Shown here: positions 2,375 to 61,304 of the stretch, one piece after another
Layout: every line of letters begins with the position of its first letter
Position numbering within the stretch: position 1 is the first letter of the stretch
Origin: Bacillota bacterium
Lineage (GTDB): Bacteria; Bacillota; Clostridia; Christensenellales; UBA1242
Reading direction: 5' to 3'
DNA: 64,000 nucleotides
Assembly: GCA_009780375.1 (NCBI GenBank)
Contig: WRAD01000001.1
Span: 48,228 to 112,227, forward strand
Translations under genes and position numbers: made by a program
Notes under the pieces: model-generated
Seen by the model: the letters and a program-made list of their open reading frames with translations, nothing else
Told to the model about the DNA's origin: nothing
The model's database searches: none

Positions 2375-2403
2375 TTGACAAGTGATTTAATAGTTGCTAT
2401 AAT
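2375..2403 (+). promoter_or_regulatory. Sigma-70-type promoter of the LysR gene: TTGACA-17-TATAAT, with the ATG 8 nt after the -10 (leaderless or near-leaderless)
   Basis: TTGACA at 2375-2380, TATAAT at 2398-2403, ATG at 2412. No SD lies between them. Confidence 0.6.
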
Positions 2404-2411
2404 ACGTTATT

Positions 2412-3308
2412 ATGATAGCAAGCAACGTAAATTTTAATCTCTACAAATCGTTCGTGGCGGTCTTTGACCAAAAGAACATAAGCAAAGCGGCGGCCCAGTT
2501 ACAGATAACACAACCAACTGTGACCTATAACGTCAAGGAACTTGAACGGCAACTTGGTGTAAAGTTGTTCCATACTCACCCCCGGGGTGTCGAACCAACT
2601 AAAGATGCAAATGAACTCTACAAGTTCGTTGTGGCCGCACTCATTTCGATTGCAAACGGCGAAAACGCAATTCGTACTTTCGATGAGAGTGCAAGTGTTG
2701 TTATTCGCATCGCATCGTTTGGAGGTTTTGTGGCAAGTTATGTTGCAAAGGCAATTCGCAACTTTTCAAAAAAATATCCTCTTGCGAAATTTGAGGTTCT
2801 TTATTCAAGTTATGGTGATCCATTTACTCGCCTTTCGCAACACGGTGCAGATCTTGTGATTGATATGTACGAGGCATCCATGCCACAACTTGCAAGTTTT
2901 GAACTTAAAAAAGTCGAGCGTGTGGCGGTCGCAACCCCAGAGTTTATTAAAGAAAACAAAGTTGGTGATAAAATTTCTGCAGAAACACTTGAAACAATAC
3001 CATATGCGGTTTTCAAAAAGGCAATACGTCTTATTGATTCAAAAGTAAAAGCAACGCCTTTTGCAATTGTAGAAACATCAAGCAATTTACTTGAAATGGT
3101 AAAGGCATCTGCAACACTTGGAATTTGTTATGCCGACGATATTGAAGGGATGGATGGTCTTACAACTATTGACATTTCAAAGCTTGCACTTCCATCAAGT
3201 ACGCTTAAATGCATCTATAACAAAGAATCGGTTACAAAACCAACAAAGGCATTCATTTGCGAACTTTGCGAAGTATTTAATGTAAAGGCTCCTTTCATGA
3301 AAGACTGA
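2412..3308 (+). CDS. LysR-family transcriptional regulator
   Basis: N-terminal HTH (ISKAAAQLQITQPTVTYNVKELERQLGVKLF) followed by a ~200-aa substrate-binding-like C-terminal region. Confidence 0.85.
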   Translation: MIASNVNFNLYKSFVAVFDQKNISKAAAQLQITQPTVTYNVKELERQLGVKLFHTHPRGVEPTKDANELYKFVVAALISIANGENAIRTFDESASVVIRIASFGGFVASYVAKAIRNFSKKYPLAKFEVLYSSYGDPFTRLSQHGADLVIDMYEASMPQLASFELKKVERVAVATPEFIKENKVGDKISAETLETIPYAVFKKAIRLIDSKVKATPFAIVETSSNLLEMVKASATLGICYADDIEGMDGLTTIDISKLALPSSTLKCIYNKESVTKPTKAFICELCEVFNVKAPFMKD

Positions 3309-3340
3309 GAAAGAAAAATAGTAACATAATTCCATAAGCA

Positions 3341-3368
3341 AAAACACCCGTAATAAGGTGTTTTTGTT
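3341..3368 (+). terminator. Intrinsic terminator after the LysR gene
   Basis: Stem AACACC/GGTGTT, 8-nt loop, then TTTTTGTTT. Confidence 0.7.
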
Positions 3369-3374
3369 TATAGG

Positions 3375-3864: not shown

Positions 3865-5256
3865 TTACTTGCCTATGCAAAAATTTGAAAATATTTCGTC
3901 AATTACCGCATCAGACACATTGGTTCCACTTATATTTCCAAGATGATCAAGTGCGGTTGTAATGTCTGTAGCAATCATATCAAGGGACAACCCGTTAATA
4001 TTCTCAAGTGCGTTTACAAGAGCCCGATATGCAAGTGCAAGTTCGTTTAGATGACGTGTGCTTGTAATGACAAGTGTGTCATGTGCCTGATGAATTTGGA
4101 AACTTTCAGTAATTGAAGAATAGACAAGTTCTTTAAGTTTTGAAATGTTTTCATGTGACACCGCAGAAGTGAAAATGGTATTCCCGCATGGTGTGTCCCA
4201 GTTGACTGTGTTTTCATTAAATGAGGTCAAATCACTTTTATTAAGTACAAAAATAACTTGTTTGTTATTAAAGGAGTCAAGCAAATCCAAGATTTTGATG
4301 TCTTGCTTTGTTGGTTTGCAAGATCCATCAAAAATTGCAAGAATTATATCTGCCTTTTCCATTACTTGTCTAGAACGTTGAATGCCAAACTCTTCGATTT
4401 TTGAAATCTCATTCGTCTTTGTATCGGATCGAATATCGCGTTGTCCTGCGGTGTCATTAAATACCAGTTTAACACCTTTATATAAAATACTCTCGGTTAT
4501 GGTGTCTGTTGTTGTTCCTTCAATGTTTGTGACGATGCTTCTGTCTCTGTTTATAATTGCGTTAAATAAACTGCTCTTACCGACATTAGGTCGCCCTATA
4601 ACCGCGATTTGGATACCACTTGACATTATTCGTCCTTCATTTGCACTTGAAATAAAAGAATTAATGTCACTGCCCGCAGATGCAATTTTGGATTTAAGGT
4701 CGGCAACAGTACTGTAATCAATATCATCATCTGGTTGATCAAGTATTGTTTCAATTTGTGCAAGGCAGTTCAAAAGTTCCTTTTCCATTAAAAAGAGTTT
4801 TTTCGACAAAGCCCCTTGGCTTACAAGGGATATCGCTTTTAATTGACTCTCACTCTCTGCTGCAATTTTGTCCATAATTGACTCTGCCTGATCAAGTGAA
4901 ATTTTACCATTCAAAAAAGCTCGTTTTGAAAATTCTCCAGGCTGTGCCAATGTTGCACCCAAAGTTAACAAATGTTCAACAAGTTTCTGTAAAAGAAATG
5001 CTCCGCCATGAGCTTGGATTTCTACAACATTTTCCCCAGTGAAAGACCTGGGTCCAGGAAAGTAAATAACAATTACATCATCACTGAAATCAGGTGTTAA
5101 AATCGTTCCATACGTTGCATAACGAGGTTTAATTGAGGTCTTTGAAGTAAAACACTTTAAAACAATATCAAGTGCCAATGAACCACTTAAACGTATTATT
5201 CCAACACCGCCATTTCCAATGGGTGTTGCAATCGCTGCAATCGTTGTCTTTTCCAT
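3865..5256 (-). CDS. mnmE: tRNA modification GTPase MnmE
   Basis: Conserved N-terminus MEKTTIAAIATPIGNGGVGIIRLSG, G-domain GRPNVGKSSLFN and DTAG, and the C-terminal CIGK motif. The start was moved to M9 of the track ORF because of the extended -10 just upstream. Confidence 0.93.
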   Translation of the reverse strand: MEKTTIAAIATPIGNGGVGIIRLSGSLALDIVLKCFTSKTSIKPRYATYGTILTPDFSDDVIVIYFPGPRSFTGENVVEIQAHGGAFLLQKLVEHLLTLGATLAQPGEFSKRAFLNGKISLDQAESIMDKIAAESESQLKAISLVSQGALSKKLFLMEKELLNCLAQIETILDQPDDDIDYSTVADLKSKIASAGSDINSFISSANEGRIMSSGIQIAVIGRPNVGKSSLFNAIINRDRSIVTNIEGTTTDTITESILYKGVKLVFNDTAGQRDIRSDTKTNEISKIEEFGIQRSRQVMEKADIILAIFDGSCKPTKQDIKILDLLDSFNNKQVIFVLNKSDLTSFNENTVNWDTPCGNTIFTSAVSHENISKLKELVYSSITESFQIHQAHDTLVITSTRHLNELALAYRALVNALENINGLSLDMIATDITTALDHLGNISGTNVSDAVIDEIFSNFCIGK

Positions 5257-5261
5257 ATCCA

Positions 5262-5270
5262 AGTTTAACA
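5262..5270 (-). promoter_or_regulatory. Extended -10 (TGtTAAACT) 5 nt upstream of the mnmE ATG
   Basis: Minus-strand sequence reads TGTGTTAAACTtggatATG, with no SD. Confidence 0.55.
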
Positions 5271-9167: not shown

Positions 9168-9189
9168 GTTGTATTCATATATTCCCTGT

Positions 9190-9486
9190 ATGGAAAGAAC
9201 AATTTGTGCAAGAGGCAGTATTGAAACATTTGCAAACGACATAGGCGCGGATAACATAAATAGGTTTTTTGTGCGAAGTATGGACAAACGAGTATGCCGA
9301 GGCAATTGCAACGGTCAGATAGTTTTGAGAACTCCTCAAGTTCCGGTTCCATCATCACAATCATCAAAACCAAAGCCCGAAACGGTTTCATTAAAACTTG
9401 GTAAAATCAGAATCCAAATTAAAAACGCGGAAAATATTAAAGTTCGTGAAGAAGAAGGCGGTGTGATGATTTCGGTTTCACAATAG
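9190..9486 (+). CDS. Hypothetical Cys-containing small protein
   Basis: It is the only long ORF in the gap. TATATT sits 6 nt upstream of the ATG, matching the leaderless pattern. I recognise no family. Confidence 0.35.
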   Translation: MERTICARGSIETFANDIGADNINRFFVRSMDKRVCRGNCNGQIVLRTPQVPVPSSQSSKPKPETVSLKLGKIRIQIKNAENIKVREEEGGVMISVSQ

Positions 9487-9488
9487 AC

Positions 9489-11141
9489 CTAGACATTAAA
9501 GAGTAATATAGCAAATCCATAAATTGCAAAACTTATTCCCGCAAGCGAGTAACGAATGGTTTTCTTCTCGATAAAAATAAATCTAGACAACAGAAAAAGA
9601 CCAATAAAATAGAATAAAAACCAATAACCATTTATGTTAAATGCAACCTGGGCATTTATTGAACTTATCCAATTTGTTGCATGAATAACACCGCGAGTAA
9701 AAATATCTGCCCAATATAATAAAGGCGAACCAATAAAAGTAACAAGAGCAATAACCGATAATTTGAATGCAATCACCAAAAGAGGAAGCAAGAATAAATT
9801 TGTAAGAATACTGAATGCAGGATATGCACCAAAATACAAAACTATAAATGGGAATACCGCAACAGATGTACTTAAATCAAGTGCAATTGTTCCCGATATA
9901 AATTTTCTAAACCATTGTATCCACTTTTTTTGTGCATTCTCGTTTTTCCCAAAGCACAAGACCTTGTTACAAAAACGATATAGAGGTCGGTACAAAAGTG
10001 CAATCCCAATCATACATCCAAAAGTCAATTGAAATGATACAGACATAATTGAAAATGGAAACAAAACAAGTACAATTACCATCGCCATGCAAATAGAGGA
10101 AAATAAATCAACTCGCCGTACAAATAACCTATTAAAAACCATCACAAGAAACATAATGGCGGCACGCATAATTGAATATCGAAAATCCGCAAGAAACAAA
10201 TAAAGTAACAGTGTACAAAAAATTATAAAGAATTGAGGCTTTTTTGGCATTTTTAAAATATGCATAACACCAACAAGCAATCCAACGACCATACCTACAT
10301 GAAGTCCACTGACCGCCAGAACATGTGCAAGACCTGTTGCCGAAAAACTTTCTCTAATATCAGAATCTAAACTTGATCTGTCGCCAAACAACATAGAGTA
10401 CATGAGAGTTGCACTTTGTTCACTCATATGACGATTGAAATAGTTATAGGTATACCTCATAACACTCATTCTTGCATCTGAACTGCTCCCATGAAATATT
10501 AAACCTCTTCCACGATGTGATGTGGTGTATCTGATTCGGTTGTTAACATTAAATGGACTTGAATTACTTGCAGATAAAGTTGTATTAAGACTTACAACAG
10601 TACCAAAGCCAAGACTCCTAAGCGATTCTAATACTTCCTCGTCCTGGGCCGTTAAATTCACCCGAACACGCCCGGTGATTCTTTGCCCCATAAACGTTGC
10701 ATTGTTCAAAACAATATTTGCCCTTCCTTCATCCAAAAAAGTATCATCTCGAATTGTAAATGATGTAATTGTGCCGCGAAGTTGTCCTTCGCCTATAAAA
10801 CTTCTTTGGTTTTCAAAAACAACTTGTGTTACTCCAAATGAAATTATTACCGCCAAACATAATAACAACGTAGACGCAAAAAATATCTTTGATGAACCAA
10901 TTGCCTTTAAACACGTTCCCCGAAAACCTTTCTTGTTATTCCAAGCATTCATTGCAACAAAAAATAAAATAAGTAAGCCAATCCACACAAATACAAGCCA
11001 AAACCCAACGTCTCTTGAAATCATACAAATAATAACGGTTAATCCAACAAACAGTGCAAAAAAACATACAGGACGAAAATTAACCAATTGCCTGTTTTTG
11101 CAAATTTTATCATTTTTTGTCACAATATCATTGTACAACAA
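9489..11141 (-). CDS. comEC: ComEC/Rec2 competence channel protein lacking the C-terminal MBL domain
   Basis: Polytopic membrane protein with an N-terminal OB/DUF4131-like insert and the competence-domain motif GLAHVLAVSGLHVG. It ends after the TM core, with no HxHxDH region. TTG start. Confidence 0.85.
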   Translation of the reverse strand: MLYNDIVTKNDKICKNRQLVNFRPVCFFALFVGLTVIICMISRDVGFWLVFVWIGLLILFFVAMNAWNNKKGFRGTCLKAIGSSKIFFASTLLLCLAVIISFGVTQVVFENQRSFIGEGQLRGTITSFTIRDDTFLDEGRANIVLNNATFMGQRITGRVRVNLTAQDEEVLESLRSLGFGTVVSLNTTLSASNSSPFNVNNRIRYTTSHRGRGLIFHGSSSDARMSVMRYTYNYFNRHMSEQSATLMYSMLFGDRSSLDSDIRESFSATGLAHVLAVSGLHVGMVVGLLVGVMHILKMPKKPQFFIIFCTLLLYLFLADFRYSIMRAAIMFLVMVFNRLFVRRVDLFSSICMAMVIVLVLFPFSIMSVSFQLTFGCMIGIALLYRPLYRFCNKVLCFGKNENAQKKWIQWFRKFISGTIALDLSTSVAVFPFIVLYFGAYPAFSILTNLFLLPLLVIAFKLSVIALVTFIGSPLLYWADIFTRGVIHATNWISSINAQVAFNINGYWFLFYFIGLFLLSRFIFIEKKTIRYSLAGISFAIYGFAILLFNV

Positions 11142-11176: not shown

Positions 11177-11185
11177 TGCTATACT
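11177..11185 (+). promoter_or_regulatory. Extended -10 (TGcTATACT) 8 nt upstream of the holB ATG
   Basis: Sequence ATGCTATACTGGGTTtaaATG. The same ATGCTATACTGGGTT string is found upstream of folD. Confidence 0.55.
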
Positions 11186-11193
11186 GGGTTTAA

Positions 11194-11919
11194 ATGATTT
11201 ACACGAATGAAATACTTGATAAAGATTTGGCAACAAACAATTTATCGCAATCTTATTTATTGGTCTCGTTTGATATTTTATATCTTGAGGAAATTGCAAA
11301 AAGATTTTCAAAAAATTTTAATATCGCAGATGTATTCTGGCTAAGGCCAAAAGATGGAGGGAAGAGTATCTCTGTCGAACAAGTAATTGCATTTAATGAA
11401 AATGTACATTTGGCGGCGATTGGATTTAAAAAATTACTTGTTATAAGTGATTTTTCAGCAATGACAATCCAAGCACAAAATAAAATGTTAAAAGTTCTTG
11501 AAGATATACGAAATGACAGTGTATTTTTATTACTTGCAAGTAATCCTGACAGAGTTATTAACACAATTAAAAGTCGCTGTGTAATTTTATATCAACAAGA
11601 ATTAAAAGGGGCAAGTTTATATGAACAAGACTTGTTCACAAATAACAAAGCAACTGCTGAAATTTTCGAAAGTGCAAAAGCGTTATTCGTATCTAAAGAT
11701 TTGAACGAGGCATTGCCACATATTGTTGTGCTTGGCAACAAGGACAATTTTAAAATAGCACTAATTGCCCTTTCAAAACAGGTGTCGCTTATGGATTTAA
11801 AAGCACCAAAGACATATCGTCTTATGTCTGCGTTGTCAGAAATAAATCGTAATGTCGAGGCAAACTGTAATCCGACAAACGCACTTGATCTTCTTGTAAT
11901 TGAATTATTCCAATGCTAG
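11194..11919 (+). CDS. holB: DNA polymerase III delta-prime subunit (short form)
   Basis: AQNKMLKVLEDIRNDSVFLLLASNPDRVINTIKSRC matches the clamp-loader sensor region (..LLKtLEEP..TI.SRC). The P-loop is degenerate, as is typical of delta-prime. Confidence 0.7.
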   Translation: MIYTNEILDKDLATNNLSQSYLLVSFDILYLEEIAKRFSKNFNIADVFWLRPKDGGKSISVEQVIAFNENVHLAAIGFKKLLVISDFSAMTIQAQNKMLKVLEDIRNDSVFLLLASNPDRVINTIKSRCVILYQQELKGASLYEQDLFTNNKATAEIFESAKALFVSKDLNEALPHIVVLGNKDNFKIALIALSKQVSLMDLKAPKTYRLMSALSEINRNVEANCNPTNALDLLVIELFQC

Positions 11920-11959: not shown

Positions 11960-11968
11960 TGCTATACT
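11960..11968 (+). promoter_or_regulatory. Extended -10 (TGcTATACT) 5 nt upstream of the ricT ATG
   Basis: Sequence TGCTATACTtgcacATG, with no SD. Confidence 0.55.
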
Positions 11969-11973
11969 TGCAC

Positions 11974-12795
11974 ATGACAAAAGTTGTAAATATAAGGATC
12001 GGGGACAACAACCCGCCTGTGAAATATGATACCAAAATTGATCTTGCCCCAGAAGATTTTGTTGTTGTCGAATCACCAAATGGTGCCGAATGGGGCGTGG
12101 TAGACACAAATCCATATGAACAAAAAACAAGTGGTCAAAATTATCTTGTAATTCGAAAAGCAGACGATAATGACATGAAAACAATAAAACTTCGTCAAAA
12201 TGATGCAAAAAATGCGGTAAAAGTTGCCACCGACAGAATTGAAAAATACAAGCTTGATATGAAATTACTTAACGCAACATATACCTTTGATGGTGGCAAA
12301 GTTATAATCCAGTTTTCGTCACCTGGGCGTGTTGATTTCAGAGAACTTGTCAAAGATTTGGCCTACAGCCTTAAAACAAGAATCGAATTAAAACAAGTAG
12401 GATCTAGAGACGAAGTTAAAACTTTTGGTGCACTAGGTGGTTGTGGGCAAGTGTGTTGTTGTGTAAGATTCAAACAAGATTTTGAAAATATTACGATTAA
12501 AATGGCAAAGACACAAGGACTAAGTCTTAATCCGCAAAAGATTAATGGGATGTGCGGACGATTGCTTTGTTGTTTGAATTATGAAAATGCACATTACATT
12601 GAAACCGCCGAAAGGATGCCAAAATATGGGCAAGAAGTACAAACGCCCGATGGCAAAGGAATTGCACAAGGACATAATGCAATTAAAGAAACGGTAGATG
12701 TAAAGTTCCATAAAGATGGCGTCTTCAGAACAGAATGTTTCAGGGCATGCGATGTAAAATGCGGTGGGTGTCGCAAGCATGAAGAAAATATTTAG
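11974..12795 (+). CDS. ricT: PSP1-domain protein (YaaT/RicT, stage 0 sporulation-type regulator)
   Basis: PSP1 C-terminal signature with Cys clusters (GGCGQVCCCV, CGRLLCCLNYE). Sits downstream of holB, as in Bacillus. Confidence 0.85.
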   Translation: MTKVVNIRIGDNNPPVKYDTKIDLAPEDFVVVESPNGAEWGVVDTNPYEQKTSGQNYLVIRKADDNDMKTIKLRQNDAKNAVKVATDRIEKYKLDMKLLNATYTFDGGKVIIQFSSPGRVDFRELVKDLAYSLKTRIELKQVGSRDEVKTFGALGGCGQVCCCVRFKQDFENITIKMAKTQGLSLNPQKINGMCGRLLCCLNYENAHYIETAERMPKYGQEVQTPDGKGIAQGHNAIKETVDVKFHKDGVFRTECFRACDVKCGGCRKHEENI

Positions 12796-12835
12796 AGGCA
12801 TGGTTAATTAACAAATGTGTTAAACTCTTGATAAG

Positions 12836-13321
12836 ATGAAACAGGTAATTATCATAAATGGAAATTGTGGTGTCGGAAAAGACACAATGATTGAATTCGC
12901 CAAAAGAAAATTCAAAATACGAAATGTCTCAAGTATTGACCCTATAAAAGAAATTGCACGCATTGGTGGTTGGCGTGAAAAAGACGAAAAGGGCAGACGA
13001 CTTCTTGTAAACCTTAAAGAATTATTCATAGAATTTAATGATCTTCCAACAAATTACTTGATAAAACAATATAACCAGTTTCTTAAAAGTGATGAACATC
13101 TCATGTTTGCACATATACGTGAACCTGAAGAAATAGACAAGTTTAAAAAAATTTCTCAAGCAAAAACACTTTTAATAACGCGAAGTCAATCTGCTGCAAT
13201 TGACTGTGGACGAAATAATGTAAAGTATACATATGACTTTCTGTTTGCAAATGATGGTGATACTATAAGTGAAAATGGTGAAAATTTTATAAAATTCCTA
13301 TTTGAGTGCTTATTCAAGTGA
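12836..13321 (+). CDS. Small P-loop NTPase/kinase-like protein
   Basis: Walker A GNCGVGKDT near the N-terminus, 161 aa. TGtTAAACT box 9 nt upstream. Confidence 0.55.
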   Translation: MKQVIIINGNCGVGKDTMIEFAKRKFKIRNVSSIDPIKEIARIGGWREKDEKGRRLLVNLKELFIEFNDLPTNYLIKQYNQFLKSDEHLMFAHIREPEEIDKFKKISQAKTLLITRSQSAAIDCGRNNVKYTYDFLFANDGDTISENGENFIKFLFECLFK

Positions 13322-14749: not shown

Positions 14750-15469
14750 TTATTTAATGCCCCTTTGCCTATTTATTTCATAAAGAACCATTGCGGTTGC
14801 GGTTGCCACATTTAAACTGTTTACCCGACCAAACATAGGCACAGAAACAACATTGTCTACAAGTGACTTTGTAAGATGCCTGACTCCTGTATTTTCACCA
14901 CCCATAACAAGGGCAATTGGACCTGTCAAGTTGTTTTGTGCAACGTTCACCCCTCCCATATCTGCCGCATAAACCCAGAATCCTTTTTGCTTTAAATGCT
15001 CAATCTCTTGATTAATATTTGTCACTTTTGCAATTTTCACATGATTCGCGGCCCCCGCACTTACACGAATAACCGTTTCATTGACACTCGCCGCCCGATT
15101 TTTCCCAATGATTATCCCATCAACGCCCATACATTCGGCGGTGCGAATTATATTGCCAAGATTATGTGGATCTTCAACACCATCCAAAATGACTAATAAT
15201 GGTTGCCGTGGATTTCCTTTGGATCCTTGTAAAATTTCAGATAATGTAAAATATTTATAATCTGTCACAAAAGCGATAAAACCTTGATGATTCTTTGTTT
15301 TACTAAGTCTGTCAAGTGCGACTTTGTCAACGAACTGGTACTGGATACCACTTGATTTTATTTTTGAAACAAGGTCGTTATGCCCGGTTCCCTTGAACAT
15401 CATTATTTTTTCAATTGTCGCATTGCTTGCAAGTAATTCTTCGACCGCATTTTTTCCTTCAACTAACAT
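14750..15469 (-). CDS. rlmB: SpoU/TrmH-family 23S rRNA 2'-O-ribose methyltransferase (RlmB-like)
   Basis: N-terminal substrate-binding region plus SpoU motifs (DGVEDPHNLGNIIRTA, LVMGGENTGV, NSLNVATA). Confidence 0.85.
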   Translation of the reverse strand: MLVEGKNAVEELLASNATIEKIMMFKGTGHNDLVSKIKSSGIQYQFVDKVALDRLSKTKNHQGFIAFVTDYKYFTLSEILQGSKGNPRQPLLVILDGVEDPHNLGNIIRTAECMGVDGIIIGKNRAASVNETVIRVSAGAANHVKIAKVTNINQEIEHLKQKGFWVYAADMGGVNVAQNNLTGPIALVMGGENTGVRHLTKSLVDNVVSVPMFGRVNSLNVATATAMVLYEINRQRGIK

Positions 15470-15475
15470 AGTTTT

Positions 15476-15484
15476 ATTATACCA
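15476..15484 (-). promoter_or_regulatory. Extended -10 (TGgTATAAT) 6 nt upstream of the rlmB ATG
   Basis: Minus strand reads CGTGGTATAATaaaactATG. Confidence 0.55.
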
Positions 15485-15498: not shown

Positions 15499-15858
15499 TT
15501 AAATCTTAATTAAATCAATTGCCCGTTTTTCGTTGCCAGTTAGCACGTTGAACCCAATCACCGATTCTAGTGCCGTTGCCTTTTTATATTCTGCCAGTGA
15601 GCAACTTGACGGTACAGTATTCACACTCGCATTTCTTGCCCTGTTTGCAATATCTTTTTCAACATCACTCAAGCCTTCAAAGATTTTGTCAAATAATTCT
15701 GCCTGTGCCTTTGCACAAACAATTTTACTTGCCATATCATGTAACTTTGCAACTTTGAAGCCGTTTGCTGCAAGTTCCTTTCTTATAACTAAACTCATAT
15801 ATGCATCCCCAACAAACGCAAGTACAAGAACATTCTTATTCGCAATTTCTTTTTCCAT
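15499..15858 (-). CDS. mrnC: Mini-ribonuclease 3
   Basis: LAFVGDAYMSLVIRKEL matches the RNase III-like catalytic helix of Mini-III. About 120 aa after moving the start to M32 of the track ORF; the N-terminal extension runs through a promoter. Confidence 0.8.
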   Translation of the reverse strand: MEKEIANKNVLVLAFVGDAYMSLVIRKELAANGFKVAKLHDMASKIVCAKAQAELFDKIFEGLSDVEKDIANRARNASVNTVPSSCSLAEYKKATALESVIGFNVLTGNEKRAIDLIKI

Positions 15859-15863
15859 AAGCA

Positions 15864-16810: not shown

Positions 16811-16816
16811 ACTGAC

Positions 16817-50547: not shown

Positions 50548-50592
50548 TTGACAAACTTTGTAATTGTCAAAAATCAAAAAACATCGTAATAT
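50548..50592 (+). promoter_or_regulatory. Inverted repeat TTGACAA-N9-TTGTCAA overlapping the promoter TTGTCA-17-TAATAT of CDS 50599
   Basis: Perfect 7-bp arms at 50548-54 and 50564-70. The -10 TAATAT at 50587-92 lies 6 nt before the ATG. Confidence 0.5.
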
Positions 50593-50598
50593 TAAACT

Positions 50599-51030
50599 AT
50601 GTTAAAAAAACTTTTTGCAAAAAAATCAAAAACAAAAGGATATCCACGAGGATATACGCCAACTTCTGCCGATTTGGCTGTAGATAATTTTGTTGCAAAC
50701 ACACTTAAACAAAAACAGGAACTTAATTATACGCAAAGTGACTATGAAAAACTTGTTGGTAAAAAACTTCAAATATTCAATTGCACAAATGGGGAAGACA
50801 TAACCTATAAACTTGAATCGGTTGCTCATCTGGAAAATTCAACTTTTGGTGACACATTTTATTTACTTGCTAACGCCCCTGACAAAACACAAATTGTATT
50901 TCATCCGCGTTACCAAGATGAATCGTTTTGTTTTATTACTGCGGTGAACGGGAAAACTCTTGACGGGTATTTATCATTGTCTGATCACGAAATTTGTGCT
51001 GAACTTTTGCCTAAAATTACAAAGTCATAA
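50599..51030 (+). CDS. Hypothetical protein
   Basis: 143-aa ORF in the leaderless promoter context. No motif recognised. Confidence 0.5.
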   Translation: MLKKLFAKKSKTKGYPRGYTPTSADLAVDNFVANTLKQKQELNYTQSDYEKLVGKKLQIFNCTNGEDITYKLESVAHLENSTFGDTFYLLANAPDKTQIVFHPRYQDESFCFITAVNGKTLDGYLSLSDHEICAELLPKITKS

Positions 51031-51121: not shown

Positions 51122-51149
51122 TTGACATAATTCGATTTTTGGCTATAAT
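51122..51149 (+). promoter_or_regulatory. Promoter TTGACA-16-TATAAT, with the ATG 7 nt after the -10
   Basis: TTGACA at 51122-27, TATAAT at 51144-49, ATG at 51157. Confidence 0.6.
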
Positions 51150-51156
51150 GGAAGAT

Positions 51157-52884
51157 ATGAAAAGACGCATCTTAACCATAGTCGGTATTGCAATTGTTGT
51201 ATTTGCAGGTGGACTTACCGCTATTTTGATAAACGCGATGGCAACAACAATTAGGCTCTCTCCTGTAGGAAGTATCTACAGTGTCTCTGGCAATGGTGGG
51301 AATGCCGTTTCCGTCGGCGGTTACTTGTATTTTATTGGTAACTTTCACTCAAGGTACGATATAAACAGGCGTCCAAATAACATTTATGGTAATCCAGGCA
51401 CAGGGCATCGATTGACAAATGGTGCGATTTGGCGTATTCGTTTAAACGAAGAGGGGCTTCCACAATATGACAACAGTTGGATTGACGGATGGCAAGATGA
51501 ATGGAATGCAGGGCACCCTGATTTTATAGGCGGTCCAAATTCATCAGAAATTGATGATTTAAGACAGGACAATGAACATATAGAAACACAGATTGACTCG
51601 CGATTTGTTCCAGGTACCCTTGAACTTGTTGTGCCAAAGGTCGCAGGTCACGAACAAAGTTCGTTATTTATTATGGGCAATCATCTCATTTACACAAGTC
51701 CACACAACTATTATGGAAGAGGTCATGATGATTTACAAATCGACCGAACAGATTTTTTCAGGGTAGATTTAACAGGTGCAAATAACAGGCTTTTGTATAC
51801 AACAAGGTCAAGGGCTCATCAGGTAACACGCAATGACTTCACCGTCGCATGGGTAGATGGACAAAGTCATCTTTTAATTCGTGAACCTGTTGGGGATGGA
51901 CTCAGCCGAATCACACACGTTAATGTATCCACCGCAAGGGTACAAACACTTACAACCGAGGCGGCAACATGGGCATTCCCAGAGGTGACAACCTTCATAA
52001 GAACCACCTCAGGTGGAACCCACTTAAAAGGCTTTGGGGGCATAATGTCATTCGTGTATTGGACCGAGGCTCGTCCTGAATCCGATCCAACAAATGGTGA
52101 CCTTGTATTCCGTCACCACTTGGGGTCAAGAAACGCAACACGTAACCTTATGGCAGACGACCATAACACAAGATTTCAACTTGTATCGCTAAGCGGTGGA
52201 CGCCTTATTTGGAGAAGAGGCAATTTTAATACTCCACACAATTGGTCACTTCGCATAACAGAAAGTACCGATCAGGGTGTTTTTGCATCAGGTGCAATAA
52301 ACGCAGAAACTCGCCAAGTATGGGAAGCCGACATGGTGTCAATGTCAACAAGTGATTCCGAATTTAATACAATCGTTGCACCAACAGAAAACGCAGGATT
52401 TGTATTCAGTTTCTTTACGCTGTTCGGTCCTTCTGGTAACCAAAGTATTTGGAGATGGACATTAAGCGATGGACAATTTTCCGAGACGGTGATTCCTGGA
52501 ACGCAAGGTGTTGAAGAAATTGTAAAGGTTGCATCAAGTCGCCTGTTCTTTATGCGTGGCGGACAACTTCATTCAATTAATTTTGACGGTACAATTGCAA
52601 GACCACCTGTCACAATTTCTCCTGACCGTGAGACACGAATAAATATCTCTATCTTCACCCCAATCGCAAGTGATGGGTTCAGGGTAAATAACGCACATGA
52701 CTTTATCTCATATATCCGCACAATTCACTCAATTGTTGATGACGACATGGTTATCGATGATGAAACTGGCGAATCTCCAATCCCAACAGGTAATTCAATA
52801 ACAATTGCAGTGATTGTTGATCGTCAAAACAACGCTCATCGTCTTTGGAATCTTGAAAATGAATTCGTAGGAATTCCATCTTAA
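51157..52884 (+). CDS. Membrane-anchored beta-propeller-like protein (DUF5050/TolB-like repeats)
   Basis: N-terminus MKRRILTIVGIAIVVFAGG anchor, with recurring YF/LY..G..L..I..DG-type blades (YLYFIGN, LIYTSPHN, FFRVDLTGANNRLLYT, LFFMRGGQLHSINFDGT). Family call is by resemblance only. Confidence 0.55.
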   Translation: MKRRILTIVGIAIVVFAGGLTAILINAMATTIRLSPVGSIYSVSGNGGNAVSVGGYLYFIGNFHSRYDINRRPNNIYGNPGTGHRLTNGAIWRIRLNEEGLPQYDNSWIDGWQDEWNAGHPDFIGGPNSSEIDDLRQDNEHIETQIDSRFVPGTLELVVPKVAGHEQSSLFIMGNHLIYTSPHNYYGRGHDDLQIDRTDFFRVDLTGANNRLLYTTRSRAHQVTRNDFTVAWVDGQSHLLIREPVGDGLSRITHVNVSTARVQTLTTEAATWAFPEVTTFIRTTSGGTHLKGFGGIMSFVYWTEARPESDPTNGDLVFRHHLGSRNATRNLMADDHNTRFQLVSLSGGRLIWRRGNFNTPHNWSLRITESTDQGVFASGAINAETRQVWEADMVSMSTSDSEFNTIVAPTENAGFVFSFFTLFGPSGNQSIWRWTLSDGQFSETVIPGTQGVEEIVKVASSRLFFMRGGQLHSINFDGTIARPPVTISPDRETRINISIFTPIASDGFRVNNAHDFISYIRTIHSIVDDDMVIDDETGESPIPTGNSITIAVIVDRQNNAHRLWNLENEFVGIPS

Positions 52885-52963: not shown

Positions 52964-53449
52964 ATGGAATTGAAATTAATTAAAAGGCTTGCCGAGTTAA
53001 TGAATTCGGAAGGGCTTAAACAGCTTGAGCTTACAACGGATGCAGGGTCAATATGGCTTGAAAGAGACAGCAGTGTTACTGTTGTTGATACAACATCTAT
53101 AAGGGCAAAAGTTCCAGAAAGTGTAGATCAACGCGTTTTAATTAAAAAAGTAACAAAGCCAGGTAAGAAAACAACAGTAAAAGAAATCAAAGTAATGTCT
53201 GGTAAGTGTTATGAAATTCGAAGCCCAATCGAAGGAATATTTTATGCGGCAACAGAACCTACCGATCCGCCATATGTAACAATAGGGCAAACGGTATCCG
53301 ATGGAGACTTGCTTTGTGTTATCGGTGAAGATGGCGTAATGAATGAACTTGAATCCGAAGTTGATGGCGAAGTGTCGGAAATCCTTGTATCAAACGGTCA
53401 AAAAATTACATTTGACCAAGTTCTTTTCAAAATAACTAAAAAAGGCTAA
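52964..53449 (+). CDS. Biotin carboxyl carrier protein (BCCP)-like protein lacking the biotinyl-lysine
   Basis: The N-terminus MELKLIKRLAELMNSEGLKQLEL and C-terminus RSPIEGIFY...GDLLCVIGEDGVMNELESEVDGEV are collinear with AccB, but EAMKM is replaced by GEDGVM. AGGGGGA SD upstream. Confidence 0.65.
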   Translation: MELKLIKRLAELMNSEGLKQLELTTDAGSIWLERDSSVTVVDTTSIRAKVPESVDQRVLIKKVTKPGKKTTVKEIKVMSGKCYEIRSPIEGIFYAATEPTDPPYVTIGQTVSDGDLLCVIGEDGVMNELESEVDGEVSEILVSNGQKITFDQVLFKITKKG

Positions 53450-53458
53450 ACTAAAACT

Positions 53459-55462
53459 ATGTACAATCTTGGCATCGTTCAAAAATTTAAAGAAAAATGG
53501 CATGTCTATACAATCATAGCGATTGTAACTGTCGTTATATTTTTGTTTTTAACAATGATGATAATCAACATGGTAAGCGGAAATCCTATCTTCAGTTTTG
53601 GTGCGGTAAGAAATCCTTACTTTATAACAATTGCACTTATAATACCGTTCGGGGTAATCGCTTTGTTGGTCGCAGGGTTTTTCTTCAGTGACGAAAAGAG
53701 TAAAACCGTCGAACAATTTTATTCTAACCGTTGGATGTCAAAGTCGGAACTTAACAAAGTTTATCTCTCAACTACACTAAGCCGACTTAAAATGCAACAA
53801 AAAACAGGAACCCTTGTAAGATTTGAAAAAGTAGGAACCGACATCCAGATTAATATGGTTCCACAAGATTATCATACGATTGTTCTTGGAACAACAGGTT
53901 CTGGTAAAACTCAAGGGTATGTGTTGCCATATGTTTATGTGCTTGGGCACTCTGCCCAAAAGCCAAATATGGTTATCACCGACCCAAAGGGCGAGATTTA
54001 TGCAAAAACCGCCGAAACCTTGCGACGAAATGGTTATGATGTCCAGGTTTTTAACCTAAGTGCACCGACACAATCTTCAAGATGGAATCCACTCGAGAGA
54101 GCATGGGATATGTTTCAACGTGCACACAGTTTGGAAAGAGAACTTAAAAAACATACATCCAAAGATCCGGCATCAATGGGGTTAAGAGTAATTGCAAGTA
54201 ACTATCCAAGTGAATGGTACGAATTTAACGGGGTTGCATTCCCAAGTTTTCAAATGGCAGACATGGAAAGGAAAACACTCAAGCAACGGCTTCTTTCCGA
54301 GTCTGAATCTGATATAAAAGATGTATGTGCGGTAATTTGCCCAATAGAAAACGAGCGTGACCCAAGTTGGGAAAATGGGGCAAGGGACCTTATCCAGGGT
54401 ACCGTTCTTGCAATGTTAGAAGACAGTCTCCGTCCAGAACTTGGCATGACAAAGCAAAAATTTAATTTTTATAACGTGTACAAAATCTTAACGATGCGAG
54501 ATAATGATCCAAACGCATCTTTCAAATCCATTGCAAACTACTTTATGGGGCGTTCCAGATTATCTCCGGCGGCAATGCTTGCACAAACGGTTATTGCCAA
54601 CAGTGAAAATACAAAGCGTAACTTCTTTGGTGTGTCTACAAATAAACTTTCCATGTTTGCCGATAAAGGTATTTGCTATATAACAAGCGGTACCGAAATA
54701 GAATTTAAAGGATTTGTTGAACGTCCAACCGCAATGTTCCTTGTTATTCCTGACCAAATTAAAATTCGTCATCCTCTTGCTGTGCTTTGTGTGGCTCAAC
54801 TTTACAAAACGCTTGTTGATCTTGCCAATCAACAGGGCGGAACCCTAAAATGGCCGACATACTTTATTCGTGACGAGTTCGGTAATATGCCAAAGATGAA
54901 TGACTTTGAAACAATAATCACCGTTGCCCGTTCTCGTAAAATCTTTATCACCCTTGTTTTGCAGGACTATAAACAACTTGAAACCGTTTATGGTGCGGAC
55001 AAAGCGGTTACTATTCGAAATAACTGTAATACACAAATTTTTATCGGTGTTAATGATATGGATACAAGAAAGATGTTCTCGGATCTTCTTGGTGAAATGA
55101 CTGTTGAGGCACATTCCACCTCGGAATCAAAAAACACAGGCAAGCAAATCAAGGATGATCCTCTAAGTGGTTCAAAATCTACATCTACAAATACGGTGTC
55201 CCGTCCTCTGTTACCACCCAACGAACTTCTTGATCTTCAGCCGGGGCAAATTTATGTTTATGCATTTGGCTTTCACCCTCTGAAATCTCATGTAACTCAC
55301 TTTTGGAAGGCTCAACAAGCAGGTCTCGTAAAGCTCTATCCTGAACCTGACACATGGTCTGCATCCAAATATTTTGATGAAGAGGCGGTTTATTATGATG
55401 TTCGCCGTCGTAACGACATAGTTATCAACAATGCTCGTCGCAATGATGTTTTTGATTGGTAA
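53459..55462 (+). CDS. Type IV secretion coupling protein (VirD4/TraG/TraD-family ATPase)
   Basis: Two N-terminal TM segments, Walker A VLGTTGSGKTQG, Walker B-like YFIRDEFGNMP, and the LVLQDYKQLETVYG and IFIGVNDMDTRKMFSDLLG motifs. Confidence 0.8.
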   Translation: MYNLGIVQKFKEKWHVYTIIAIVTVVIFLFLTMMIINMVSGNPIFSFGAVRNPYFITIALIIPFGVIALLVAGFFFSDEKSKTVEQFYSNRWMSKSELNKVYLSTTLSRLKMQQKTGTLVRFEKVGTDIQINMVPQDYHTIVLGTTGSGKTQGYVLPYVYVLGHSAQKPNMVITDPKGEIYAKTAETLRRNGYDVQVFNLSAPTQSSRWNPLERAWDMFQRAHSLERELKKHTSKDPASMGLRVIASNYPSEWYEFNGVAFPSFQMADMERKTLKQRLLSESESDIKDVCAVICPIENERDPSWENGARDLIQGTVLAMLEDSLRPELGMTKQKFNFYNVYKILTMRDNDPNASFKSIANYFMGRSRLSPAAMLAQTVIANSENTKRNFFGVSTNKLSMFADKGICYITSGTEIEFKGFVERPTAMFLVIPDQIKIRHPLAVLCVAQLYKTLVDLANQQGGTLKWPTYFIRDEFGNMPKMNDFETIITVARSRKIFITLVLQDYKQLETVYGADKAVTIRNNCNTQIFIGVNDMDTRKMFSDLLGEMTVEAHSTSESKNTGKQIKDDPLSGSKSTSTNTVSRPLLPPNELLDLQPGQIYVYAFGFHPLKSHVTHFWKAQQAGLVKLYPEPDTWSASKYFDEEAVYYDVRRRNDIVINNARRNDVFDW

Positions 55463-55502: not shown

Positions 55503-55531
55503 TTGACAAAAAGCATATTTTGACGCATAAT
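55503..55531 (+). promoter_or_regulatory. Promoter TTGACA-17-CATAAT, with the ATG 6 nt after the -10
   Basis: TTGACA at 55503-08 and CATAAT at 55526-31. The string CGCATAATAAAGATATGAA is identical to the one at 33792-33810. Confidence 0.6.
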
Positions 55532-55537
55532 AAAGAT

Positions 55538-56446
55538 ATGAAATCAATAAAAAAGGTTTTGCTTTTGATTCTGATCCTTGTACTAATTGCCCCTGTCGCA
55601 ATAATTGCAACAGGATGCTTTGGCGGTAATAACAACTCAATCAATCGCGAGCACATACAAAATATACAATGGAATCTTGCACGAGTCGAAAGTTCCTCAT
55701 CACATGACCCAACGGTTCATTCAATAGGAGCGGGAGATATTTTATTTGATAACCAATTTGCCGGTTTTTTGTTTTTGGGCGGAGCCGGTAATTTTATCGA
55801 AACACTTGGTATTTTAGGTGAATTTCATGGGCATTGGACATTGTCATCTACGCGATTGGTTCTTACTTATGATATAGGAGGATTTGTTGACAGATGGAAT
55901 ATAAGATTAAAGAACAATAACACTACGCTTGAAAAATCTCAAACACAGCTTGGTATAACTTCAACGTTTATTTACACCAAAAACGAAGTTCTGCCTAATG
56001 TTAATCCAATAAACCCGGCACAAATTGTCGATATTCAATGGAATCTACACTCGGTAAGTTATATAGATGAATCATCCAATGTAACAATTGTAGACGAATA
56101 TGAACACATGGAGTTTGGAAGTTACAATCATTTTACAGAAATGTATGCAGGCTATCTCATCTTGCACAATGACAACAGATTTATACAAACTCAAGGTCAA
56201 TTTGGCGCATTTGAGGGTGCTTGGACATTGTCGCAAGGAACGTTGGATTTAACCTTTGACCCAGAAATTATTGATAACTGTGAACTTTATCCAGAACATC
56301 AACATTATTGTTTCCCTCCAAGCCGTACTGAAACCTGGAGACTTGGCATATCTGAAGATGGACAAACTTTGGAAAAGGTGCGTGCGGAACTTTCATTTGA
56401 GGGTGGTATCGCTTTTGAAATTCGTATATTTACTCGTGAAAACTGA
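55538..56446 (+). CDS. Lipoprotein with two tandem homologous domains (possibly META/HslJ-like)
   Basis: Lipobox IIATGC. Two ~125-aa repeats each start I(Q/V)(N/D)IQWNL and end (H/A)WTLS...L.LT(Y/F)D. Confidence 0.65.
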   Translation: MKSIKKVLLLILILVLIAPVAIIATGCFGGNNNSINREHIQNIQWNLARVESSSSHDPTVHSIGAGDILFDNQFAGFLFLGGAGNFIETLGILGEFHGHWTLSSTRLVLTYDIGGFVDRWNIRLKNNNTTLEKSQTQLGITSTFIYTKNEVLPNVNPINPAQIVDIQWNLHSVSYIDESSNVTIVDEYEHMEFGSYNHFTEMYAGYLILHNDNRFIQTQGQFGAFEGAWTLSQGTLDLTFDPEIIDNCELYPEHQHYCFPPSRTETWRLGISEDGQTLEKVRAELSFEGGIAFEIRIFTREN

Positions 56447-59360: not shown

Positions 59361-59867
59361 TTATTTCATTTTATAATCAATCACTCTTTCTAAATGATTT
59401 GCTGTTTCATTAACAAGAATATAAGAAAGTGCAAATTTTTCGTATGCTTCTTGTCTTTTTGTCATATTTGGGTTTAAAGGCGGTTGTCTTTTAAGTGCAC
59501 GCGAGTAATCCACACTGCGAGGAACTTCGCCTATTTCTTTGTAGAGTGAATGCACAACCCAATTACGAAGTTGCCTCACATAATCAATTCTATCAAGTTC
59601 TGCAATAGTTAAAAAAATTCTTTTTCCACGTGCAATTTCATCCCTCATTCTTTCCACCAAATTCGACCAACCACGTTTGTCATCAATCTGCAGACTATCA
59701 ACTTCGGTTGCCAAAAATACAAGTTGTCCCTCAATTTGTTGTTGCCCTTTGATAATACTTTCAACCCACATTGTTTGCCAAAAATCAGATTTACTTCCTT
59801 CAAGTAATCCACGTGCACGTTCTTTATATTGTCTGATGATATCGTCCATAAGCAAAGTGTACCACAT
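59361..59867 (-). CDS. Hypothetical all-helical protein with a HEPN-like RNxxxH motif
   Basis: LRNWVVHSLY at residues 100-109 resembles the HEPN/DUF86 RNxxxH..Y motif. Start set at MWYTLL, because the track's N-terminal extension is translated from repeat C9. Confidence 0.45.
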   Translation of the reverse strand: MWYTLLMDDIIRQYKERARGLLEGSKSDFWQTMWVESIIKGQQQIEGQLVFLATEVDSLQIDDKRGWSNLVERMRDEIARGKRIFLTIAELDRIDYVRQLRNWVVHSLYKEIGEVPRSVDYSRALKRQPPLNPNMTKRQEAYEKFALSYILVNETANHLERVIDYKMK

Positions 59868-59875
59868 ATTTTCTG

Positions 59876-59946
59876 CTCTAGGAACTATCGCTTCAATCAT
59901 TTGCAGGATATCGGCTGAAACGCACCGTATGCGTGCCTTTGTTCTA
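59876..59946 (+). repeat. Dispersed repeat copy C9 (divergent middle)
   Basis: CTCTAGGAACTATCGCTTCAATCATTTGCAGGATATCGGCTGAAACGCACCGTATGCGTGCCTTTGTTCTA. Confidence 0.8.
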
Positions 59947-59993
59947 CGAAAACACGAATAGTGTGTTTGGTGATAATTGCACATAATTAAGTT

Positions 59994-61304
59994 ATGGAAT
60001 CAATTTGGAAAAAATATTTAAAGCCTATTGACAATGTTAAAAAAACAGATGCAAAAGTTACAAAACTTGATTGCATAGTTGTGGGAGGCGGGATCGCAGG
60101 CATAATGTGTGCCTATATGCTTGCAAAAGAGGGTCAGAAAGTAACAATTATTGAGGCGGCCCAAGTTCTAGGCGGTGTGACATCTAACACAACCGCCCAT
60201 GTTACAAGTTTACAAGGAAGATACAGAGACATACCTGGTGCAAAAAGACGAAAGTTATTTTTCCAAAGCCAACAACAAGGGATAGACGGAATCGAAGAAC
60301 TTGTTAATAAACACAAAATAGACTGTGATTTTCAAAGGACAGATGGTATTGTATTTGGAAATGGCAAACCTTTAAAAAAAGAATTCAAGGTAATGAAAAA
60401 AATTTCCAGTGATATAAGATTAGAAAAAAACAAGAAACTCCCATTTGGTGATTTCGATTGCATAACTTTGAACATGCAAGCCCGATTTAATCCAATCAAC
60501 TTTTGTTATGGAATAATAAAAGCCGGTAATTTTGACATAATTGAGAATTGTCGTATCAAAAAAGTTTGTTTAATGAAAAAAAGACTTGAAACCGAGAACA
60601 TGATTTTTAAATACAACAAAGTTGTCTTTGCCACAGGGTTTCCGATTATAAACATTCGAGGTATTTATGCGTTCAAAATGTATAAATCTTCTTCATACGC
60701 AATTTGCAAGAACAATTCACAGCAGCTAGGTGCAATTTACAATTCGGTTGAATCTGATGGAATGACATATAGAGATTCCGAAGATGGAGTTATAATTGGT
60801 GGTTTTGATCATAGAACCGGTCGACATAAATGTAGCAAATACTTTTCAAAACTTGGTGATGGTAAATTCAAATGGGCGGCAAATGATTGCATGACCTTTG
60901 ATGGTATTCCATACGCAGGTCGTTTATTACGTGTATTCGCACGCGATACATATGTAATAAGTGGATTTTCAAAGTACGGCATGGTGAACAGTTTTATATC
61001 GGCAAAGATAATCGCAGATACTGTTTCTCGCAAAAAGAATCTATATAAAAGACTTTTCAAGCCAACACGTGTTTTGAATGTCAAAGTTTGGCCTTTATTC
61101 TTTTTGAATTTTTTATTGGATGCGAAAAATCTCACGGCAGGACTTTTCAGCAGTGGCAAACGAAGATGCCCACATATGGGGTGCAGGTTAAAATTTAATC
61201 CTAACACAAAGACATTTGATTGTCCATGTCATGGATCACGACTTACAAAAAAAGGCGATATAATCATAAGTCCGACGGTTGACGCAAATGAAAAATTATT
61301 GTAA
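59994..61304 (+). CDS. FAD-dependent oxidoreductase with a C-terminal Rieske [2Fe-2S] domain
   Basis: N-terminal dinucleotide motif VVGGGIAGIMCAYMLAKEG and C-terminal CPHMGC...CPCHGS Rieske ligands. CATAAT 6 nt upstream of the ATG. Confidence 0.75.
   Translation: MESIWKKYLKPIDNVKKTDAKVTKLDCIVVGGGIAGIMCAYMLAKEGQKVTIIEAAQVLGGVTSNTTAHVTSLQGRYRDIPGAKRRKLFFQSQQQGIDGIEELVNKHKIDCDFQRTDGIVFGNGKPLKKEFKVMKKISSDIRLEKNKKLPFGDFDCITLNMQARFNPINFCYGIIKAGNFDIIENCRIKKVCLMKKRLETENMIFKYNKVVFATGFPIINIRGIYAFKMYKSSSYAICKNNSQQLGAIYNSVESDGMTYRDSEDGVIIGGFDHRTGRHKCSKYFSKLGDGKFKWAANDCMTFDGIPYAGRLLRVFARDTYVISGFSKYGMVNSFISAKIIADTVSRKKNLYKRLFKPTRVLNVKVWPLFFLNFLLDAKNLTAGLFSSGKRRCPHMGCRLKFNPNTKTFDCPCHGSRLTKKGDIIISPTVDANEKLL

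Follow-up and report, generated by a model that had tools for sequence, protein, structure and literature searches.

Putative promoters at the start codons: sequence evidence for widespread leaderless expression in a 64-kb region of a low-G+C gut Firmicute

Genes and host of the region

The 64-kb window (the whole stretch of DNA that was analysed) is part of the 113,687-bp metagenome contig k141_2636167 (ENA ERZ27257297), and many of its genes have a -10 promoter hexamer a few nucleotides upstream of the start codon, an arrangement that suggests leaderless mRNAs. Leaderless initiation is considered characteristic of Actinobacteria, Deinococcus-Thermus and archaea, while the Firmicutes are the textbook Shine-Dalgarno (SD) phylum. 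The G+C content of the window is 37%. The contig includes the chromosomal core genes rpsL, rpsG, rpsO, pnp, ftsH, mnmE, metK, folD, tsaE/B and rimM/trmD as well as the spore genes GerAC, spore permease and YabP, and it can therefore be considered a piece of a Firmicutes chromosome. The nearest named relatives of its MetK and RecD2 proteins are encoded by metagenome-assembled genomes (MAGs) labelled Christensenellaceae or Christensenellales (56-63% identity), and the host is best read as a Christensenellales-related Clostridia lineage. Proteins of the window recur on contigs of the Joint Genome Institute (JGI) metagenome 3300010369, which represents the P1 segment of the hindgut of Labiotermes labralis, a higher termite that feeds on soil (PMC7800795).

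Gene starts were those of the source assemblies' own gene calls for 78 genes (window -4618..+1461), 66 of which are inside the window. A second definition of the start, blind to the -10 box, took the first ATG of each open reading frame (ORF). A hexamer satisfied the strict criterion when it matched TATAAT in at least 5 of 6 positions, while the loose criterion accepted boxes of the TANNNT type and admitted 4/6 hexamers. An SD sequence was called when the match was of 5 nt or more.

Position of the -10 hexamers

With the gene-caller starts, a hexamer with at least 5/6 matches was found 5-9 nt upstream of 28 of the 78 genes, where 5.6 were expected and the offsets 12-44 had 1.1 each (Poisson p 1.4e-11). 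The strict hexamers were spaced 5 nt (n=7), 6 nt (n=16), 7 nt (n=2) and 8 nt (n=3) from the start. When the first-ATG rule was used, TANNNT occurred at spacing 5-6 in 18 of 63 genes versus about 1.8 for every other offset, and the profile upstream of internal in-frame ATGs, which served as control, was flat. A shuffled-sequence control had been named by a preliminary description of this DNA, and the peak exceeds its expectation at the level of the window: when the 50 nt upstream of each gene were shuffled 2000 times with dinucleotides preserved, strict hits numbered 3.1±1.7 against 27 observed (z=14) and loose hits 10.7±2.9 against 35. Among these 35 accepted cases the spacing was 6 nt in 20, 5 nt in 8, 7 nt in 3, 8 nt in 3 and 9 nt in 1, which bears out the range of 5-9 nt with a mode of 6 proposed earlier, and alignment of the sites gives (T)TGnTAtAaT-N6-ATG. 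The occurrence of -10 boxes near the starts is thus confirmed as far beyond chance and statistically robust.

The same description had listed 29 genes with this arrangement. Twenty-seven of them were recovered (23 under the strict criterion and 4 under the loose one), no acceptable TANNNT box was present in the SIS (31139) and XRE (50295) genes, and four genes could be added: comEC, the Mntp-like gene, the TraG/VirD4-like gene and orf196. These two unconvincing members of the list, the false-positive rate per gene of about 14% on the loose criterion (about 4% on the strict one) in shuffled upstream regions, and a total number of promoter-like sites that matches the shuffle expectation are what could be expected if TATAAT-like hexamers were simply common at 37% G+C and the starts had been picked to fit them. 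Such an artefact of chance, base composition or annotation is largely refuted and is highly improbable as the origin of the pattern, since the 6-nt peak appears under two independent definitions of the start with a shuffle z of 14, Firmicutes loci of equal or lower G+C content have only 1.6-1.8% of such genes, a value under their own control offsets, and the starts are pinned by Pfam N-termini and upstream stop codons. Weak single calls, notably those with 4/6 hexamers or with neither TG nor -35, may be due to chance.

Across the window and its flanks, a TANNNT directly abutting the annotated ATG (spacing 0) was observed in 7 of 78 genes, where about 2.3 would be expected, and a part of these starts may have been miscalled, for example that of orf85, TTGACAtcTATAAT-ATG, just past the end of the window.

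Promoter features of the boxes

The boxes have further characteristics of promoters. The dinucleotide TG is found one base before 19 of 30 strict hexamers, while it precedes 10.4% of all such hexamers in the sequence (p 4e-12), and the neighbouring registers have TG only 0-7 times. Over all accepted cases TGn is present ahead of 21 of 35 boxes, in agreement with the earlier statement that it is usual. Positions A2 and T6 of the motif are invariant. TTGACA-like -35 sequences (at least 5/6) were found at gaps of 16-18 nt in 10 of 35 cases versus 1-2 of 35 at four control gaps, and the six -35 elements reported before (2375, 26715, 33771, 50564, 51122 and 55503) were all recovered by an independent scan. 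In an independent consensus scan, the two 12/12 matches (lysR and the 575-amino-acid ORF) and three of the 11/12 matches (sigma factor, metK and lipoprotein genes) all terminate 5-8 nt ahead of a start codon. TG and -35 elements tended to replace one another, as expected, but the trade-off was not significant (Fisher p 0.15). The evidence says that these boxes are, as judged from sequence, putative Firmicutes sigma-A promoters of the extended -10 kind. At promoters of the sigma-70 type the canonical initiation point is located 7 nt after the -10 hexamer; with a spacing of 6 nt, the canonical +1 would fall on the A of the ATG.

SD sequences and position in operons

The 78 genes could be divided into 35 leaderless-type, 28 SD-led and 15 with neither feature; none had both. 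The two classes are mutually exclusive, as no leaderless-type gene has an SD of at least 5 nt. The SD-led class includes hup, rpsO, pnp, potA-D, tsaB, rluD, trmD and the histidine phosphatase and biotin carboxyl carrier protein (BCCP)-like genes, that is, every gene that had been put forward as an SD-bearing contrast. Thirty-three of the 35 leaderless-type genes are operon-first, being divergent from the upstream gene or separated from it by 25 nt or more, and on the loose criterion they represent 33 of the 62 operon-first-like genes. The 16 tightly packed internal genes include 10 that are SD-led and 2 with a box. A leaderless-type first gene followed by an SD-led gene was found in tsaE-tsaB, lspA-rluD and rimM-trmD and, outside the window, in rpsL-orf80-rpsG, where orf80 and rpsG are both SD-led. 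In SD-led first genes the best -10 is located just 11-40 nt upstream, so that leaders would be short across the genome. Several divergent gene pairs are separated by only 9-70 bp.

Some of these loci have features of their own. The rpsL gene (L023:18114-18491, about 2.0-2.4 kb upstream of position 1) has a promoter that fits the leaderless type perfectly, TTGACA-18-TGaTAGAAT-7-ATG, and a product that starts MPTI; it is a highly expressed ribosomal protein gene, and fusA/tuf does not come after the rpsL-rpsG pair. The start codons of rsmD and alr (24583-24598) are 14 bp apart and those of orf207 and the Rieske gene (59984-59994) 9 bp apart, close enough that each promoter would lie inside the 5′ end of the neighbour; the CATAAT -10 of the Rieske gene (59982-59987) holds the complement of the orf207 ATG.

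The lack of SD sequences, the A/T-rich DNA just upstream of the starts and the promoter-like sites found further upstream of a few genes could also be accounted for if the box were a non-SD translation signal, either an A/U-rich enhancer of the S1 type or a ribosome binding site of the group B kind, within a longer 5′ untranslated region (UTR). A signal of this nature should precede internal genes too, but the box is found in 2 of 16 internal versus 33 of 62 operon-first genes. Moreover, the invariant A2 and T6, the single TG register (19 of 30) and the -35 at 16-18 nt are traits of recognition by RNA polymerase and not of ribosome binding, and the divergent pairs 9-70 bp apart leave no space for separate UTRs. 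We consider this explanation very unlikely.

A somewhat less improbable, although still unlikely, alternative is that the promoters are real and transcription starts a few bases upstream, generating mini-leaders of 4-10 nt that are translated by an SD-independent 30S pathway. Spacings of 7-9 nt in 7 of 35 genes are compatible with it, as are the very short leaders predicted for SD-led genes, with the -10 at 11-40 nt, and the -10 located 11 nt upstream of metK in the related locus L018. However, spacings of 6 (20/35) and 5 nt (8/35) place the canonical +1 on or beside the first base of the start codon, which is always a purine, the kind of base favoured for initiation.

Assignment of start codons

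In 23 of the 35 leaderless-type genes no other possible start lies between the assigned one and an in-frame stop codon 3-51 nt upstream. The Pfam profiles begin at residue 1 in RsmD, 2 in RlmB, 3 in MetK, 5 in MnmE (from 5256) and in the OB domain of RecD2, 7 in RimM, and 8 in FolD and TsaE, so that a start further downstream would truncate conserved domains. The lipoprotein, when read from 55538, starts MKSIKKVLLLILILVLIAPVAIIATGC, a textbook signal peptide with lipobox. These features of the genes and of the predicted proteins confirm the assigned start codons. Three gene-caller starts in the window look wrong, namely mnmE ATG 5280, orf575 ATG 51148, which overlaps the -10, and lipoprotein ATG 55493. 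The earlier proposal that many ORF starts be corrected was reasonable for mnmE (5256, on the Pfam profile) and the lipoprotein (55538, on the signal peptide), while for ricT, mrnC, the HIT-like gene, the murJ-like gene and rimM the gene caller had already agreed. The mrnC gene (15856-15968, minus strand) is ambiguous, as GTG 15933 and ATG 15858 each have a promoter at leaderless distance. The leaderless-type modules of the window are collected in Table 1.

Table 1. Leaderless-type promoter and start codon modules in the window. Numbers between elements are nucleotides, the position of the start codon is in parentheses, and L followed by a number denotes a locus outside the window.
Gene	Coordinates	Strand	Architecture	Remarks
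lysR	2375..2414	+	TTGACA-17-TGcTATAAT-8-ATG(2412)	12/12 promoter match; first start after in-frame stop
mnmE	5254..5270	-	TGtTAAACT-5-ATG(5256)	loose -10; TrmE_N profile position 1 = residue 5
orf9190	9178..9192	+	TATATT-6-ATG(9190)	no TG, no -35; weaker case
comEC	11121..11135	-	TACAAT-6-GTG(11123)	absent from earlier list
holB	11177..11196	+	TGcTATACT-8-ATG(11194)	L016 ortholog TG-extended, spacing 6
ricT (PSP1)	11960..11976	+	TGcTATACT-5-ATG(11974)	L016 ortholog TGcTACTCT-7-ATG
P-loop (AAA_18-like) gene	12818..12838	+	TGtTAAACT-9-ATG(12836)	loose; longest spacing
rlmB	15467..15484	-	TGgTATAAT-6-ATG(15469)	SpoU_sub_bind profile position 1 = residue 2
mrnC	15856..15872	-	TGaTATACT-5-ATG(15858)	alternative TTGACA-16-TAGAAT-7-GTG(15933)
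NUDIX gene	16802..16819	+	TGaTAAAAT-6-ATG(16817)	
HIT-like gene	19021..19058	-	TTGCCA-17-TGgTATTAT-6-ATG(19023)	
Extracytoplasmic function (ECF)-type sigma factor	19138..19175	+	TTGATA-18-TGtTATAAT-5-ATG(19173)	
Mntp-like gene	19686..19699	+	TACAAT-5-ATG(19697)	absent from earlier list; only 17 nt past sigma gene
murJ-like (Polysacc_synt/MatE) gene	22176..22190	-	TACACT-6-GTG(22178)	loose
rsmD	24581..24598	-	TGgTATAAT-6-ATG(24583)	Pfam profile position 1 = residue 1
metK	26715..26752	+	TTGAAA-17-TATAAT-6-ATG(26750)	no SAM riboswitch; profile position 2 = residue 3
orf28808 (68 aa)	28806..28823	-	TGtTATACT-6-ATG(28808)	
recD2	33493..33510	-	TGaTATACT-6-GTG(33495)	OB_YrrC profile position 6 = residue 5; same architecture in L105, L106, L109
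ilvD/edd-family gene	33771..33808	+	TTGACC-17-CATAAT-6-ATG(33806)	
folD	35326..35343	+	TGcTATACT-6-ATG(35341)	profile position 1 = residue 8
orf41276	41264..41278	+	TATAAT-6-ATG(41276)	
tsaE	42172..42189	+	TGaTATAAT-6-ATG(42187)	SD-led tsaB downstream; profile position 2 = residue 8
alpha/beta hydrolase	43897..43910	-	TATATT-5-ATG(43899)	
lspA	43989..44006	+	TGaTATAAT-6-ATG(44004)	SD-led rluD downstream
rimM	46303..46321	+	TGaTATACT-7-ATG(46319)	SD-led trmD downstream; RimM profile position 2 = residue 7
orf50599	50564..50601	+	TTGTCA-17-TAATAT-6-ATG(50599)	loose -10
orf575 (earlier "propeller"; no Pfam match)	51122..51159	+	TTGACA-16-TATAAT-7-ATG(51157)	L016/L017 ortholog TTGACT-18-TATAAT-7-ATG
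TraG/VirD4-like gene	53447..53461	+	TAAACT-6-ATG(53459)	loose; absent from earlier list; 9 nt past BCCP-like gene
lipoprotein	55503..55540	+	TTGACA-17-CATAAT-6-ATG(55538)	gene caller ATG 55493
FAD/Rieske oxidoreductase	59982..59996	+	CATAAT-6-ATG(59994)	-10 overlaps start codon of divergent orf207
orf196	61884..61900	-	TGcTATGAT-5-ATG(61886)	absent from earlier list

Related loci and the metK gene

A uniform, annotation-free metric, the presence of a hexamer with at least 5/6 matches 5-8 nt before the first ATG, was used for all groups of loci (Table 2).

Table 2. Leaderless-type and SD-led genes in the window and in other loci.
Group	Genes	Leaderless-type	Control offsets	SD
window	57	33%	5%	30%
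termite-gut sister clade, six loci	104	9.6%	4.8%	38%
Christensenell*-labelled loci, two	27	26%	8.6%	44%
other metK-selected relatives	163	1.8%	6.7%	69%
other pnp-selected Firmicutes loci	729	1.6%	4.6%	59%

When the source gene calls were used, 8-11 of the 21 genes of the sister locus L106 (RecD2 68% identical) had leaderless-type starts, among them secA, holA, glyS and recD2; in L109, which belongs to a Christensenellaceae-labelled MAG, this was the case for 5 of 11 genes, with polA, der and recD2 among them. The arrangement is present across the clade of the relatives: the architecture at recD2 is kept in the window and in L105, L106 and L109 although the flanks diverge, and the same is the case for lysR, holB, ricT and the 575-amino-acid ORF in the sister locus L016. 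The closest relative by pnp (L026, 69%) has a flank that looks derived from a prophage and was set aside as uninformative on host core genes.

The metK gene shows the transition between the two modes. In seven relatives, including the sister locus L016, an S-adenosylmethionine (SAM) riboswitch and then an SD precede metK, while in the window the gene has the promoter-start module of Table 1 and the riboswitch is absent; as judged from these loci, metK has apparently lost the riboswitch that its relatives carry. An Rfam scan of the whole window, used for the metK comparison only and not as a density statistic, gave no family at gathering score; the single match with E<=1, a weak one to a eukaryotic scaRNA family, was taken as chance. 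MetK has 403 amino acids in the window (26750-27961) versus about 360 in most relatives and 386-409 in sister lineages, which points to a lineage-specific insertion.

Additional observations were made in these loci. Giant ORFs of about 2,500-3,900 amino acids with no Pfam match are found directly upstream of recD2 or beside metK or TraG-like genes in all relatives examined (L016:13721-21161, L018:1-5772, L105:1-9968, L107:1-9521, L108:1-8615 and L109:963-9986), and the recD2 gene of the window has no adjoining giant ORF. The BCCP-like (Biotin_lipoyl) gene is paired with that of a TraG/VirD4-type coupling protein in the window (52964-55462), L016:9287-13234 and L018:6814-9933, a pairing kept across the clade in a chromosomal core-gene context, to which L018 adds a type IV secretion system pilin gene. 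In the S10 ribosomal protein operon of a sister MAG (L105:19925-22232), the gaps that separate rpsJ, rplC, rplD and rplB are unusually wide (100-120 bp), and each of these genes has an SD. Terminator-like hairpins are enriched in positions 40001-60000 of the window (37 versus 14.9±3.8 in shuffles) and not in the other two segments.

Proposed mode of expression and its significance

Taken together, the promoter grammar, the 6-nt spacing, the lack of SD, the restriction to operon-first genes and the confirmed starts support the leaderless interpretation of the preliminary description. It is quite probable that about 26-31 of the 66 genes of the window, roughly half of the transcription units, would be expressed from leaderless mRNAs or from mRNAs whose leaders do not exceed 3 nt. 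A housekeeping promoter of the sigma-A type, with its -10 located 5-8 nt, mostly 6, upstream of the start codon and formed either by the extended -10 TGnTAtAaT or by a -10 with a TTGACA-like -35 at 16-18 nt, would direct initiation 7 nt after the hexamer, at the base (A or G) that opens the start codon. The transcript would then begin with this codon and have no SD, and the ribosome with initiator tRNA would bind the 5′-terminal AUG directly. We infer both the point of transcription initiation and the mode of ribosome recruitment from the arrangement of these motifs. The system would be a dual one, in which the SD is kept by downstream genes of operons and by certain highly expressed ones (hup, rpsO and pnp).

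Several observations weigh against such an extensive use of leaderless mRNAs. About 10 of the 35 loose calls could be chance, and 5 calls inside the window depend on 4/6 hexamers. The totals of promoter-like sites are not above those of shuffles in the three window segments (84 vs 71±11, 76 vs 72±10 and 74 vs 65±9), and the signal is therefore one of position and not of abundance. Usage of start codons is the same in both classes (32 ATG and 3 GTG in leaderless-type genes; 26 ATG, 1 GTG and 1 TTG in SD-led genes). Finally, promoter-like sites are located further upstream of some genes, for example at 41179-41206 before orf41276 and at 22303-22275 before the murJ-like gene, so that leadered transcripts without SD may coexist with the leaderless ones. 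The last of these sites has a structure of its own: on the minus strand, a 9-bp G+C-rich hairpin with a T-run (22227-22207) comes after the strong promoter-like TTGACA-17-TATACT (22303-22275), both being just upstream of the leaderless-type box of the murJ-like gene. This element (22207-22303), for which there was no match in Rfam, might encode a small RNA or act as an attenuator.

A broader proposal, for and against which we see the odds as even, is that an uncultured clade of Christensenellales-related gut Clostridia, from higher-termite hindguts and other gut samples, shifted independently to leaderless expression. The organism described here would be its extreme case, with about half of the units, including those of the core genes rpsL, metK, folD, recD2 and mnmE (secA, gyrB, polA, glyS and holA in relatives), and the shift would have been accompanied by a loss of riboregulation in the 5′ UTR, as suggested by the missing SAM riboswitch of metK and by the lack of Rfam cis-regulators in the 64 kb. 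If this were true, the clade would be the most leaderless-rich lineage of low-G+C Firmicutes described, and its members would form a natural gradient, with riboswitch and SD at one end and leaderless starts at the other, in which the evolution of the transition can be studied. As the relatives range from one state to the other, the transition is open to comparative genomics and metatranscriptomics. In leaderless genes, regulation through the 5′ UTR by riboswitches, T-boxes or attenuators must have been replaced, metK being an example. With about 40% of the genes looking leaderless, gene callers and start annotation tuned to the SD will misplace starts in MAGs of this kind.

Comparison with known systems

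The closest general model is group C of GeneMarkS-2, in which a Pribnow box is located 6-8 nt from the starts of first genes and 25-50% of the operons are predicted to be leaderless; the group has Mycobacterium tuberculosis and Deinococcus deserti as its typical members and includes 90% of Actinobacteria, 97% of Deinococcus-Thermus and 36 of 1064 Firmicutes (PMC6028130). The window shares with this group the Pribnow box near operon-first starts, here with a peak at 6 nt, the absence of SD at these starts, the dual model with SD on internal genes, and a leaderless share of the 25-50% type (33 of 62). It differs from the types of the group in its host, a Firmicute of the spore-former type with 37% G+C and not a high-G+C actinobacterium or Deinococcus, and in that its -10 is a full TAtAaT with TG extension, unlike their bare TANNNT.

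Within the Firmicutes, TG-extended leaderless genes have been described in Lactococcus/Streptococcus, Oenococcus/Leuconostoc and Mycoplasma, with an average of 4.2% and a maximum of 16.6% of the genes in the phylum (Zheng et al. 2011, PMC3160421). Those cases resemble the window in being low-G+C Firmicutes with a TAtAAT box, a TG peak and an equal distance to the start (PMC3160421), but the share in the window is 35-45% of the genes and the host belongs to Christensenellales-related Clostridia of the termite gut. In mapped transcriptomes of solventogenic clostridia, which share with the host the bacterial class and the sigma-A promoter consensus, 2-3% of the transcripts are leaderless and 5′ UTR lengths peak at 32 nt (PMC9045289), while about half of the transcription units of the window have no room for a UTR. 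The statement of the preliminary description that such a system is not the textbook picture for low-G+C Firmicutes is therefore correct as to frequency, with these 2-3% and the 1.6-1.8% found in 892 genes of other loci (Table 2), but leaderless Firmicutes are not unprecedented, since there are the cases of Zheng et al. and the 36 group C members among 1064 Firmicutes. No paper was found that ties leaderless expression to Christensenellales, the species list of GeneMarkS-2 group C being outside this comparison.

As in the group B non-SD sites of Bacteroidetes, many genes of the window have no SD and an A/T-rich upstream region. The group B motif also precedes internal genes of operons and cannot be a promoter, however, while that of the window is an operon-first motif, with TG and -35, and does not precede initial and internal genes alike (2 of 16 internal genes). 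The lambda cI mRNA from PRM and the Tn1721 tetR mRNA are isolated leaderless messengers that start at the A of the AUG and have no SD, in genomes dominated by SD. Unlike these isolated cases, the leaderless mode would be that of the majority of the transcription units of the window.

Mechanistically this is, as far as can be judged from the DNA, a system of a known kind, and all the sequence-testable features that define a leaderless-rich genome are present. What is new is the host lineage, the extent for a low-G+C Firmicute and the graded distribution among the relatives.

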